Positions 9,807 to 43,363 of a DNA stretch of 64,000 bases are shown here, piece by piece. A model generated the notes under the pieces. The model saw only the letters and a program-made list of their open reading frames with translations. It did no database searches and was not told the origin of the DNA. Both the position numbers and the translations under genes were made by a program. Location of the stretch: the NCBI GenBank assembly GCA_001871445.1, contig MNVD01000014.1, forward strand, positions 28,776-92,775, read 5' to 3'. Position 1 is the first letter of the stretch; every line of letters begins with the position of its first letter. Origin of the DNA: Candidatus Magasanikbacteria bacterium CG1_02_41_34. Lineage in GTDB: Bacteria; Patescibacteriota; Patescibacteriia; Magasanikbacterales; UBA922.

Positions 9807-9894
9807 TCCAAAAGTTTTTTTGAAAAAAGTTGAGGGAGTCACAGCGCGCCCCTCAGTTCGGGGCGCGCTGTGACGAGTGTGGACGGGCGAAGTC

Positions 9895-10110
9895 TTACCG
9901 CCGCTTGCGCCAGCCCGTGGGACGGCGAGCATGTTGGTGGGAGGAGAATTTCTTCGAGCTCGTCGTGTCACGACGAGGCATCATGGGGACGTTGTTTCCC
10001 CAGGGGCTGAAGCGAGGCTTTTCTTCCCCTTCTCCGATGACATACTCCGGCGGGAAGATCCCGCTGTGGGAGTATTGTATACCAACGATGATCCTTCGCG
10101 GTTTAGGCAT
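9895..10110 (-). CDS. Small GC-rich ORF (71 aa) with a basic C-terminal tail.
   Basis: Strong RBS GGAAAGAGGAAAG before the ATG. A perfect hairpin at 9838-9874 plus a U-run lies downstream on the minus strand. GC content is visibly higher than the flanks. Confidence 0.35.
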   Translation of the reverse strand: MPKPRRIIVGIQYSHSGIFPPEYVIGEGEEKPRFSPWGNNVPMMPRRDTTSSKKFSSHQHARRPTGWRKRR

Positions 10111-10370
10111 CTTTCCTCTTTCCTTTTATTGAAGGGGTTGTTGGAGGAGGTCCGATCCATTTCAGCTTGGTGACGTTTCCGTAGGAGTCACGGAAGACAA
10201 TCAACCTTGCATGAACTTGGGTCATTGAACTCCGTTCGAAGGCACCAGTCGATACCACGCCGAATAGGCGTCGCAATCCGGAATCCTTTTTCTAGGAGTA
10301 ACGCTGCCGGCATATTGCTATAAAAAGCAAAAAAATGCAAGTTGATGCATTTTTCTGCTTTCTTTTTCAA

Positions 10371-11540
10371 TTAAGAAATCCACTCTTTTTTCATCTCCAA
10401 AAATTTGTCTTCTTTTATTGCCGTACGCATCTGTCGCATGATTTCGAGAAGAAAATGGACATTGTGAATCGTCGCTAGACGATAGGCGAGCATTTCTCCG
10501 GCTCTGAATAAGTGATGAATGTATGCACGTGAGTAGTTTTTACACGTTTGGCACGTGCAAGATGGATCGATAGGATTTTTGTCTTCTCGATAATCCGCAC
10601 GTGTGATTGTTATCGTATATTTTTTATCGTGTTCTTTTACTTCTGGAGAAACATACAGTGCACCATTGCGAGCAATGCGTGTTGGTGCGACACAGTCAAA
10701 CATATCGATGCCTGCTTCTACAACCTCAAACAAATCTGTTGGTGAATATCCAACACCCATGGTGTAGTGTGGTTTATTTTCTGGAATGATCGGCATGACC
10801 CACGACAAAATTTCTTTTGTTGCTTGCATATTGTAGCCGATCGATTCGCCACCAATAGCAATGCCGTCAAAATCCATTGCAGAAATAACGCGAGCTGATT
10901 CTTCTCGAAGTTCTTTGTGTTGTGCGCCTTGGACAATACCAAAAAGAAATTGTTTTTTATCATTGTTTTCAGTTTGTTGATGATGCGATAGAGATCGTTC
11001 TGCCCACGTATGCGTTCTATCCAAAGCCTGTCGCGCGTATGCCTCATCTGCATCATCGGGCGTGCATTCATCCCATGCCATGATAATGTCTGCGCCGAGT
11101 TTGTGTTGTATATCAATTGCAACTTCTGCCGTAAATCGATGTTCACTGCCATCAATATGAGAACGAAATGTGACGCCGTCGTCATCGATTTTTACAAGTT
11201 TTGTATGTTCGTTTCCTTCCTCAGAATTTTTTCCCTGTGCAAGAGAAAATACTTGAAATCCACCAGAGTCAGTCAGAATCGGTCCATGCCAATTCATAAA
11301 CTTGTGTAGACCGCCAAACGAGGCAATCAGATCTTCACCAGGTCTGAGATGTAGGTGGTATGTATTTGCCAAAATAATTTCTGGGTCAAGTACCTCAAGA
11401 TCTTGAGAATCTAGTGTTTTTACTGTTGCCTGTGTGCCGACTGGCATAAAGCAGGGTGTCTCAATATCACCATGATCTGTATGTATGACGCCGGTGCGTG
11501 CTTTTGTTTTGCTAGATTGTGAAGTTATTTCAAAAAACAT
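10371..11540 (-). CDS. tgt: Queuine tRNA-ribosyltransferase (tRNA-guanine transglycosylase).
   Basis: N-terminus [41 protein letters not shown] is TGT-typical; C-terminal zinc site CTCQTC...HH. 389 aa. Confidence 0.9.
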
Positions 11541-11636
11541 AGATAATGTGTGACATGCATCCTAGCAAAGTTTGACCATTTTATCAATGGTGCTGTACAG
11601 TAGATACAGGTGTCTTCATCGCAGGAGGAGTACTAC

Positions 11637-12104
11637 ATGGGATCCACGAGATCGAGTAGCCCAAAGCAGATGACGAGACACCACAAAGTGCCTCGTTTCC
11701 GATGCATAAAAGGGATGCCACAGCCTGACAACGTTGTGCTCCTTGAGCGTCGGTTTCATGAGGCCTGGCATACGCTTTTTGCGGACCGAACCCCGTTCGA
11801 GATTGCTATTCTTCTCATCAAGAAGCGTTTCAATCACGGAGTAGTCAGGTCTGCCACGCTCCATGCAGCGTGGCAAGGGGGAGAAGAAACGTTTACCTAC
11901 CGATACCGACGCGATCATCCTCCATTTGAGCCCTGGACTTTCAAGGCGCCTCAGATGCGAGCGTGGCACATGCTCTTCGCTGATCGTAGCGATTACAGCG
12001 TGTTGCACGAAGTGGTGAGAGCTTCTCGTTGGTCTCCTGCTGGATATTTCCCCATGGGTCACATTGTCCTGGCGGGTGGTGGAAAGATCACGTACGGTTT
12101 TTGA
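11637..12104 (+). CDS. Small HNH-like nuclease-fold protein with an internal duplication; GC-rich.
   Basis: HHKVPR...DNVVLLERRFHEAWHTLFADRTP resembles the HNH core (HH..P...N..L..H...H). A second partial copy reads RRDHPPFEPW...RAWHMLFADRSD. AGGAGG RBS 8 nt upstream of the ATG at 11637. Confidence 0.4.
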   Translation: MGSTRSSSPKQMTRHHKVPRFRCIKGMPQPDNVVLLERRFHEAWHTLFADRTPFEIAILLIKKRFNHGVVRSATLHAAWQGGEETFTYRYRRDHPPFEPWTFKAPQMRAWHMLFADRSDYSVLHEVVRASRWSPAGYFPMGHIVLAGGGKITYGF

Positions 12105-42451: not shown

Positions 42452-42463
42452 GCAAAATTAAAC

Positions 42464-42500
42464 AAAAAACGACCATTAATATAAAAATGGTCGTTTTTTT
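42464..42500. terminator. Bidirectional rho-independent terminator.
   Basis: A-run, cgaccatt...aatggtcg stem, then TTTTTTT. Confidence 0.55.
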
Positions 42501-42621
42501 ATCCTTTAGTATGTCATTGAATATAACATGCTAAAGGATCAGGTGTGAGGGCACAAGATCCACTGTTTGTTCTATCGCAAACTTGTTCGTTACACCCTCT
42601 CAAGTGCGATAGTCAGGGGTT

Positions 42622-43065
42622 CTACTCGATCAAGATTCCGCCAAATGAACATCGCTCCATGCCGAGCGGTCGTTCGAGTTGGAATCCCGTGTCTGTCTTG
42701 ACGAGGTCAGACACGTACACATGAAAAGATGGCGTACACTTCGCGACACAGACCCCTTCGCTCTCGTAGAGCTCTAGAGTGCATTGCCCCGTGGTACCGA
42801 TGCCATTCTCGAGCGCACATGTGATGGTGTCACCGATGTGCTCGTAGAGCCACGGGTAGGTCTCACAGCCCTGCGCCGCGGGGACCGTGTCAGCCGCCTT
42901 CGGGATCGACGACGTGTCGGTCGGGTAGGGGCTGTCGGCCTTGCCGGAATCGGAGGAGTACGTGTCACTCCCGGCTTGGCCCGGGCTGTTGTCTCCACAC
43001 GCGGTGAAGGGAAAGAACAGGAGAGCCGCCAGGATGGCGGCGAAGGTGGTCAGCTGCTGGATCAT
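42622..43065 (-). CDS. GC-rich putative lipoprotein (148 aa, 6 Cys).
   Basis: AAGGAG RBS 8 nt before the ATG (MIQQLTTFAAILAALLFFPFTAC). Lipobox-like FTAC. The segment is visibly GC-rich; overlapping antisense ORFs are judged artefacts. Confidence 0.45.
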   Translation of the reverse strand: MIQQLTTFAAILAALLFFPFTACGDNSPGQAGSDTYSSDSGKADSPYPTDTSSIPKAADTVPAAQGCETYPWLYEHIGDTITCALENGIGTTGQCTLELYESEGVCVAKCTPSFHVYVSDLVKTDTGFQLERPLGMERCSFGGILIE

Positions 43066-43363
43066 GGCGGTCGCTCCTTGTCCCGACTGAGTCGGGACGG
43101 AAAGGGAAGGGTTGAGTTCGGACAGACGATGACACATCATCATTTCTCGGAACCCAATCCTTCTGTAGTGGAGGACGCCTTGTTGTTCTTCTCACACACC
43201 ATTATGTGATATCCCATATCCATATATGACATATAGGTAAAGGATACGATTGAAAAAGAACGAGATATATATTTCCCTCAGAAGAGAAACATTCCTCCAA
43301 ATTGAGCATAGTATAAAAAATATGATTTGTCAATATGTCAAGGGGATAACATTCTTCACGTAA

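Follow-up and report, generated by a model that had tools for sequence, protein, structure and literature searches.

The subject of this analysis is a set of five GC-rich islets, designated i1 to i5, that interrupt a 64-kb stretch of otherwise AT-leaning DNA (hereafter the window) from a member of Candidatus Magasanikbacteria (Patescibacteria, or Candidate Phyla Radiation, CPR). This is an uncultured groundwater bacterium, and exact protein look-ups match metagenome-assembled genomes of that name. Each islet carries one small open reading frame (ORF) led by a Shine-Dalgarno (SD) motif, a signal that was not seen before the native genes. We propose, with confidence that we would put at about even, that the islets belong to a lineage-wide class of GC-rich, SD-led small-gene units that persist yet turn over fast, and whose GC-richness is actively maintained. 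The evidence that carries this proposal comes from i2 and i5, whose synonymous sites have stayed GC-rich in diverged, AT-leaning relatives. No description of such a small-gene class was found in the searchable literature.

Five Islets Differ from the Native Genes in Composition

The GC content of the window is 0.417, with a standard deviation (sd) of 0.047 among 200-nt segments. The five islets rise above this background to peaks of 0.57–0.68, which corresponds to +3.3 to +5.6 sd (Table 1). Elsewhere in the 64 kb, GC reaches 0.57 or more only in a tRNA-Ser cluster (56396–56686; 0.585), so that the list of five islets given in an earlier sequence-only reading of this DNA is complete at that threshold. 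Codon usage shows the same departure from a uniform profile: the GC content at third codon positions (GC3) is 0.55–0.76 in the five islet ORFs versus 0.33 ± 0.044 (maximum 0.425) in 47 native ORFs, which places the islet ORFs at z = 5–10. The islets are confirmed as genuine compositional outliers. The GC-rich stretch spans the leader and the ORF; outside it the DNA is AT-rich, also at the promoter-like sites of i2 and i5. The native ORFs of the window include QueA, Tgt, UvrD, Ndk, a rhodanese, PEBP, an M50 peptidase, S12/S7/EF-G, a 3014-aa surface protein, and a type IV secretion-like cluster (TrbL/VirB6-like, PrgI, and VirB4/TraG-like).

The sequence-only reading had described one small, SD-led ORF per islet, which holds for all five, and had called the five proteins unrelated to each other, which comparison bore out. 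Its statement that several islets are followed by terminator hairpins is correct for i1, i2, and i4, and i5 abuts a bidirectional terminator (42464–42499), but no canonical terminator was found at i3. The run gcctgccggcaggc, which it had cited as an example of islet sequence, lies instead in 48-nt inverted repeats at 43356–43403 and 44150–44197. The GC-rich DNA of the islets holds several overlapping ORFs, and for i1 and i4 the predictions of public gene callers conflict. Neither the five ORFs nor their other reading frames nor the islet ORFs of relatives matched a family in Pfam, NCBIfam, PHROGs, or PADLOC at threshold, the best PHROG match being no better than E = 0.0027. Rfam, searched over the window and its relatives at the gathering thresholds and at E ≤ 1, returned tRNAs only. 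RNA folding scores relative to dinucleotide shuffles range from z = −2.5 to −5.9 for the islets compared to +0.7 to −1.7 for native segments. Since both strands score alike, these values indicate hairpin-rich DNA and not one specific RNA.

Shine-Dalgarno Motifs Set the Islet Genes Apart

The 30 nt upstream of all native starts were listed, and no SD motif precedes queA, tgt, uvrD, ndk, rpsL, fusA, or any of the others (examples are the starts at 20807, 21889, 15136, and 13025). The islet genes carry such motifs at normal spacing: AAGGAAAGAGG in i1, AGGAGGAG in i2, AGGAGG in i3, AGAGG in i4, and AAGGAG in i5. Because the native genes are both AT-leaning and SD-less, the islet genes are atypical twice over, in composition and in initiation signal, and the missing native motifs make the observation stronger than the sequence-only reading had stated. 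The absence of SD motifs from native genes fits the report of many Parcubacteria without an anti-SD motif, which a survey could not detect in about half of them (PMC9297842). The starts of rpsL and fusA are both preceded by TAAGCCTT.

Synonymous Sites Stay GC-Rich in Diverged Relatives

Syntenic loci were collected from metagenomes with UvrD as the anchor and from genomes with Tgt as the anchor; they are referred to below by locus numbers. The Tgt and UvrD proteins of the sister species L118/L009 and L105 are 85–93% identical to those of the window, and L089 is more distant (about 62–67%). In L118, L105, and L089, the gaps orthologous to the islets contain different GC-rich ORFs led by SD motifs, whose GC3 reaches 0.83. 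Members of the i2 and i5 families occupy the same syntenic positions in diverged, AT-leaning relatives (GC 0.42–0.49) at 28–65% identity, and an SD-like motif is present in seven of the eight family members inspected.

Nucleotide identity within both families is lowest at codon position 3 (0.34–0.46) and, in most pairs, highest at position 2; for i2 of the window versus L089 and L091, the values at the three positions are 0.64, 0.64–0.77, and 0.34–0.37. Because third positions are the least conserved, the i2 and i5 ORFs evolve as proteins, and both are, on sequence grounds, coding genes. At the four-fold degenerate sites of conserved residues, orthologues of i2 and i5 differ in 47–71% of cases, a level near saturation for sequences of such composition and similar to that of the native TGT and TrbL (43–71%). 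The GC content at those sites is mostly 71–94% in i5 (60–67% in L172) and 47–73% in i2, versus 31–56% in TGT and TrbL. An AT-leaning pressure would push rewritten sites to about 35% GC, and the lack of any such decay in five lineages leads us to infer a GC-favouring force. Amelioration toward host composition is not seen in i2 or i5, as their four-fold sites remain GC-rich.

Persistence is combined with turnover. Presence is patchy for i4, whose site is empty in L105, and for i2, which is absent from L118 and L105, the two closest species; these cases show that the gain and loss of units is real. No such patchiness applies to i5, whose position is syntenic in every relative found. Magasanikbacteria-like loci have the highest islet density; over the 116 loci collected, the median is 0 per 10 kb. 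A distant locus of 38% GC from the UvrD scan (L104) contains a 71-aa zinc-ribbon ORF (16879–17094) and a 265-aa ORF (20988–21785) with GC3 of 0.78–0.79, and the phenomenon may extend beyond Magasanikbacteria. At the strain level, L002 differs from the window by 31 single-nucleotide polymorphisms, none of which falls in an islet. Of these, 29 cluster in nusB (24) and rpsL (5), at window positions 2498–2690 and 20974–21088, in what looks like two recombination tracts.

Assembly, Donors, and Mobility

The null hypothesis of the sequence-only reading, an assembly chimera, is rejected because independent assemblies carry the islets in place. Eight independent contigs (JGI, ENA, NCBI, Logan), from different samples and pipelines, span window positions 371–21540 at 99.85–100% identity and agree across i1–i4; the i5 protein is found in several database records, and relatives have islets at the same sites. 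Nothing more than the compositional contrast speaks for a chimera or for contamination, the probability of which we consider negligible.

Sets of 5.8 billion and 1.84 billion proteins were searched for i2, i4, and i5 only; phages and plasmids were searched by tblastn for i1, i3, and i4, and viral contigs for all five. Within these scopes no homologue of an islet protein was found in a high-GC organism, a phage, or a plasmid. The relatives in high-GC bacteria at which the sequence-only reading had hinted did not appear, and all homologues of i2 and i5 that were found are islets in related AT-leaning genomes. Signs of mobility were equally scarce. The islets have no repeats in common and no terminal repeats, and inverted repeats flank only i3, as a pair of 15 nt; no transposase, integrase, or other mobility gene lies next to an islet. 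An arrangement of integron cassettes is not apparent either, the hairpins after the ORFs being unrelated in sequence, the islets dispersed, and an integrase lacking. Target-site duplications, another mark of insertion named by the sequence-only reading, are absent from the i4 junction when it is compared with the empty site in L105.

The i2 and i5 Families

The space between TGT and a C39-like gene that holds i2 in the window measures a mere 70–87 bp in L118 and L105. A protein search with i2 returned the protein itself and six homologues at 46–65% identity, with 45 invariant columns. The family adjoins tgt in L089, L091, L177, and the contig of homologue P0017, and is also present in L100; its GC3 is 0.51–0.73, compared to 0.25–0.45 in the neighbouring genes. 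The protein and its six homologues contain the HNH-like motif T-x-HHKVPR-x-RC…QPDN…H-x-AWH (HHKVPRSRC...QPDN...YHEAWH in the window), in which HH (residues 15–16), DN (31–32), and H41/H45 are invariant in the seven sequences. The Pfam HNH model gives E = 0.2 at best, for homologue P0019 alone. No sequence match to i2 was found in the PDB, and its AlphaFold2 (AF2) model (predicted local distance difference test [pLDDT] 66) has no PDB fold match. The motif suggests that i2 is possibly an HNH-type nuclease.

The i5 ORF shows clear codon periodicity (p < 2e-4), and its product comprises a signal peptide, the lipobox FTAC, a disordered acidic linker, and a Cys-rich beta domain. The lipoprotein signature was recognized by inspection (h-region AAILAALLFFPFTA, followed by C; VAC or AGC in homologues). 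Homologues P0020–P0024 are 29–48% identical, P0022 reaching 69% over the N-terminal part only, and have invariant Cys, Trp, and Gly residues in common. The C-terminal domain is predicted by AF2 to be a small Cys-rich beta domain (pLDDT about 90), and the model has no match below E = 0.1 in the PDB. A promoter-like site of the TTGACA-N17-TAnnnT type was found upstream. The family is always convergent with the giant-protein gene, even where the C terminus of the giant protein is only 28% identical, and adjoins a TrbL-like gene wherever the flank was recovered (L172, L173). Its GC3 is 0.72–0.94, compared to 0.27–0.44 in neighbours, and every member inspected has an SD motif.

The leader of i5 is better conserved than the protein, with 77% mean column identity in four species versus 43–47% for the full-length orthologues of L172 and L173. 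A covariance model of the leader matched i5 loci only, and the leader belongs to no Rfam family. Its SD motif is partly paired with an upstream CCUU or CCUCC, as is that of i1. The fixed place of i5 beside the giant surface protein and the secretion-like cluster suggests an envelope role, and i5 is probably a surface lipoprotein tied to that cluster.

The Orphan Islets i1, i3, and i4

The flanks of i1 (9777–9850 and 10312–10354) are 87–91% identical to L105, and the interior cannot be aligned. Its protein is basic at both termini and acidic at the center. The ORFs at the i1 site of the window, L105, and L118 have in common a basic N terminus, a short hydrophobic strand, an acidic segment P-x-E…DED-x-E-x-P, and an RKRR-stop end, and their final codons and terminator can be aligned. 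Protein shuffling gives z = 3.8 for L118 versus L105 and z = 2.1 for the window versus L105, two of the three pairs. The terminator is kept in L105, and a single arm of it in L118/L009. Taken as a real gene, the i1 ORF is plausible.

In place of i3, L118 and L105 have 628 and 664 bp of unrelated DNA inside the same flanks, again with GC-rich islets (peaks 0.65–0.69). The coding status of the i3 ORF is weakly supported by its sequence. Upstream of the islet and downstream of ndk, the sister species share a non-coding block (15707–15977) at 82–88% identity, closed by the conserved terminator hairpin, that could represent a small RNA or a tiny ORF.

Islet i4 is a precise indel. The site is empty in L105 (junction ttttag/cccttgaca), and L118 has a 1051-bp, AT-rich glycosyltransferase gene there. 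With GC values of 0.53, 0.41, and 0.75 at codon positions 1 to 3 and a codon periodicity of p < 2e-4, the i4 ORF is a probable gene. The promoter scan returned nothing for i4, and a TTGACA box with a weak −10 element upstream was noted by eye only. The resemblance of the i4 protein to ribosome modulation factor is below threshold: its match to NF011162, over residues 10–37 only, reaches 20.1 bits where the cut-off is 40 (E 4e-4), and Pfam gives no match. In L095 the M50 gene is followed by GC-richer genes (14335–17268) for a Tgt paralogue (37% identity), a CsaA-like tRNA-binding protein, a HAM1-like protein, and a MutY-like protein, with no rpsL next to them. This region was not accepted as a large insertion at the i4 site; the genes are of housekeeping type, and a rearrangement or a different genomic or strain context is the probable explanation.

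Table 1. Coordinates of the islets and associated features in the window
Feature	Position	Strand	Description
i1 GC peak	9742-10315		peak 0.635; +4.6 sd
i1 variable GC-rich segment	9838..10311	-	between QueA-orf143 operon terminator and TGT terminator
i1 terminator hairpin	9838..9874	-	GTCACAGCGCGCCCC-N7-GGGGCGCGCTGTGAC; 15-bp perfect stem
i1 ORF	9895-10110	-	71 aa; upstream AAGGAAAGAGGAAAG-ATG; GC3 0.68
Islet i2	11538..12147	+	segment missing from two closest species
i2 GC peak	11570-12166		peak 0.57; +3.3 sd
i2 promoter-like site	11572..11601	+	TTGACC-18-TACAGT; consensus scan, 9/12 matches; putative function
i2 ORF	11637-12104	+	155 aa; upstream GCAGGAGGAGTACTAC-ATG
i2 intrinsic terminator	12121..12150 (hairpin 12121-12140)	+	GGGCTAC-TTTC-GGGTGGCCC, then T tract
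Islet i3	15978..16654	+	between conserved terminator (to 15977) and conserved tRNA-Pro promoter
i3 inverted repeat	16092-16106 / 16504-16518		15 nt; 93% complementary; brackets ORF
i3 leader hairpin	16111-16163		23-nt arms; 87% complementary
i3 GC peak	16146-16602		peak 0.615; +4.2 sd
i3 ORF	16214-16429	+	71 aa; upstream CAGGAGGAAGCCAC-ATG; SD CAGGAGG; GC3 0.61
tRNA-Pro promoter	16664-16691		TTGACA-16-TATACT; conserved
i4 GC peak	20135-20536		peak 0.58; +3.5 sd
Islet i4	20162..20568	-	407-bp indel, exactly from M50 peptidase stop codon to -35 box of S12-operon (rpsL) promoter
i4 terminator hairpin	20211..20243	-	AACCCCACG...CGTGGGGTT; T tract after it on - strand
i4 ORF	20249-20467	-	72 aa; upstream AAAGAGGTTCAGTG-ATG
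i4 leader hairpin	20465..20500	-	SD AGAGG and AUG both in stem; minimum free energy -17.6 kcal/mol; z = -3.5
i5 GC peak	42535-43239		peak 0.68; +5.6 sd
i5 ORF	42622-43065	-	147 aa; upstream CAAGGAGCGACCGCC-ATG
i5 leader RNA	43063..43192	-	about 130 nt; long conserved hairpin and SD-proximal hairpin GTCCCGAC-TCA-GTCGGGAC
Heptamer-like repeats	44031-44069, 44447-44493, 51569-51593, 51687-51724, 52899-52984; also 25157-25181, 15627-15651

A Model for the Islets and Its Alternatives

In the model that we favor, the five islets would be resident small-gene transcription units of the chromosome, each sitting in a gap between other transcription units (between a terminator and a promoter for i3, a stop codon and a promoter for i4, and two terminators for i1). 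A unit would consist of a folded GC-rich leader, an SD motif, an ORF of 71–155 aa with G/C-ending codons, and usually a hairpin terminator; of the five, only i2 and i5 yielded a promoter-like site upstream. The GC-richness would most likely be held by selection on the transcript, that is, on its structure or stability. The SD motif would be kept since a GC-rich mRNA with much structure would be unable to use the SD-independent initiation on unstructured leaders that serves the native genes. The pairing of SD motif or start codon in the leader of i4, and partly in those of i5 and i1, suggests conditional translation. The class would turn over quickly, both by rapid sequence divergence and by the gain and loss of units. 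A tentative extension, to which we attach less confidence than to the class itself, is that the units use a second "expression dialect", in which G/C-ending codons, folded mRNA, and an SD-dependent, partly SD-occluded initiation, long held by selection, would amount to a separate translation regime within one cell. More speculative still is an adaptation of the units to expression in a partner cell of higher GC content, an idea prompted by the position of i5 beside the type IV secretion-like cluster.

Several observations weigh against this model. Maintenance is not absolute, as the i2 homologue of L177 has a GC3 of 0.51 and no SD motif; the two together fit a coupling of GC-richness and SD motif, in a single case. 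In an unbiased test on longest ORFs, the association of SD motif and GC3 reaches only weak significance (odds ratio 3.7, p = 0.017); this test is weak and noisy because spurious ORFs abound in GC-rich DNA, and the SD contrast rests mainly on the curated starts. Clear occlusion of the SD motif is confined to i4, and the motif is free in the leaders of i2 and i3. Codon periodicity is weak in i1 (p ≈ 0.04) and i3 (p = 0.045). The three orphans have no wider family: for i4 the search of 5.8 billion proteins returned the protein itself alone, with no phage, plasmid, or viral match, and neither i3 nor, beyond its own site, i1 has a homologue in phages or plasmids (tblastn), viral contigs, or the other islet proteins. 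A foreign origin of i1, i3, and i4 is possible, and what looks like maintenance could also arise if islets were replaced again and again from a GC-rich gene pool that has escaped sampling.

The explanation closest to that of the sequence-only reading is recent horizontal gene transfer (HGT) from high-GC donors of small genes whose composition has not yet ameliorated. The GC3 and SD usage of the islets are foreign to the genome, the empty i4 site and the missing i2 segment are what recent arrivals would leave in close relatives, the corresponding gaps of sister species hold different GC-rich ORFs, and transfer into Patescibacteria in general is on record (PMC12455944). For i2 and i5, however, a recent import does not survive the comparison with relatives, in which both families keep their syntenic position despite deep divergence and remain rich in GC at synonymous sites that are near saturation, and in which every homologue found is an islet of an AT-leaning relative and none comes from a donor within the sets searched. 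Their promoter-like sites, moreover, follow the TTGACA-N17-TAnnnT pattern also seen in native promoters, and no target-site duplication, terminal inverted repeat, or integrase accompanies the islets. For i1, i3, and i4 the import is unsupported, although the i4 site is empty in L105. On balance we regard recent transfer as unlikely, if the strongest of the alternatives. Less probable again is an exchange of cassettes with GC-rich mobile elements that have gone unsampled, for instance a CPR plasmid or phage, by repeated homologous recombination in the conserved flanks; the GC-richness would then be that of the setting in which the genes do most of their evolving. Such exchange would account for boundaries at i1, i3, and i4 that coincide sharply with conserved flanks and for interiors that cannot be aligned between flanks of 82–91% identity, and a recombination tract is visible in strain L002; but no islet gene was found outside its chromosomal syntenic context, same-site metagenomes included, viral and plasmid matches are lacking, and the ORFs at the i1 site resemble fast-diverging orthologues and not replacements.

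Instead, i1 and i3 could be genes for structured non-coding RNAs, or cis-regulatory RNAs, with ORFs that are incidental to the GC-rich sequence. Both fold more strongly than the other islets (z = −5.2 and −5.9) and combine weak codon periodicity with several overlapping ORFs; gene callers disagree for i1, and the 15-nt inverted repeat brackets i3. This explanation nevertheless appears improbable, given that no Rfam match emerges even at E ≤ 1, that both strands score alike, that the interiors are not conserved in sister species as those of a functional RNA would be, and that each has SD-ATG geometry, the i1-site ORFs even a common protein architecture. GC-biased gene conversion at recombination hot spots would suit the hypervariability of the islets and the recombination evident in the population. 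Yet the GC steps match transcript boundaries and not the homologous flanks, where heteroduplex would form and which remain AT-rich, and a jump in GC3 from 0.33 to 0.76–0.94 far exceeds the known effects of biased conversion in bacteria; we consider it very improbable.

Maintenance of GC-rich resident units would have consequences for annotation and for the study of CPR genomes. Compositional outliers are routinely read as recent HGT, and composition-based calls in CPR would misclassify the i2 and i5 families, because their outlier GC3 (0.51–0.94 versus about 0.3) persists at a fixed position. The islets also form a within-genome natural experiment on synonymous GC content, for which mutation bias, selection, or biased conversion has been a long-standing question, and SD motifs in an otherwise SD-less genome offer a handle on translation initiation in Parcubacteria. 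Several islet genes are mis-annotated or missed by gene callers.

Other Features of the Window

The type IV secretion-like cluster beyond i5 (44566–54859) encodes a 1415-aa TrbL/VirB6-like protein, a PrgI-family protein, a VirB4/TraG-type ATPase, and several ORFs without a family, and adjoins the gene for the 3014-aa surface protein. A segment of about 1.16 kb (43345–44500), with a 154-aa coiled-coil ORF (43589–44053), is absent from L172. It is bounded by the 48-nt inverted repeat mentioned above, which contains the palindrome GCCTGCCGGCAGGC, and may be a small mobile insertion. Tandem heptamer-like repeats, CACGTAA/CATGTAA (complement TGTTACG/TGCTACG), occur in the intergenic gaps of the secretion cluster and form long-range inverted repeats (Table 1).

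Elsewhere in the window, a 49-nt GC-rich inverted repeat (25796–25920; CCCCTACGAGGGGGAG.../...CCTCCCCTGATAGGGGAGG) occupies the gap upstream of a gene that starts at 25928. ARAGORN identifies a tRNA-Ser with anticodon ACT at 56240–56327 (Rfam tRNA score 51.8 bits), beside tRNA-Ser(GCT) and tRNA-Ser(TGA); an A34 of this kind is unusual outside tRNA-Arg.

Comparison with Known Systems

The islets share with the "alien" genes of Lawrence and Ochman a sharp contrast in GC content and codon usage, the character of small accessory ORFans, and, for i2 and i4, differences in presence and absence between relatives. Unlike those genes, they have no donor relatives that could be found and no mobility signatures, and the odd composition of i2 and i5 has been kept through deep vertical divergence, which is the opposite of amelioration. 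Phage morons are similar in that each islet is a single small gene, usually with a terminator and, for i2 and i5 only, with a promoter-like site, placed between transcription units and unlike its neighbours in composition. In contrast to morons, the islets lie in core neighbourhoods (queA–tgt, ndk–tRNA-Pro, and upstream of rpsL) and not in a prophage, phage matches are lacking, and the i2 and i5 families are long-term residents.

For i2, the HH...N...H motif, noted by eye with a spacing that no model has scored, and the HHKVPRSRC signature recall HNH (beta-beta-alpha-Me) endonucleases, free-standing homing endonucleases among them, and its sporadic occurrence at one fixed intergenic site is as homing predicts. 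The protein differs from HNH endonucleases in falling below the Pfam HNH threshold, in having no PDB match, and in a C-terminal region, two thirds of its length, that is novel.

Bacteria that largely dispense with SD motifs provide a parallel for the initiation signal. In Bacteroidota, for example, SD motifs are generally unused and are retained on rpsU. As there, the bulk of the genes in the window lack an SD motif, and a small minority has strong ones; here, however, that minority consists of GC-rich, hypervariable accessory genes and not of targets of ribosomal autoregulation.

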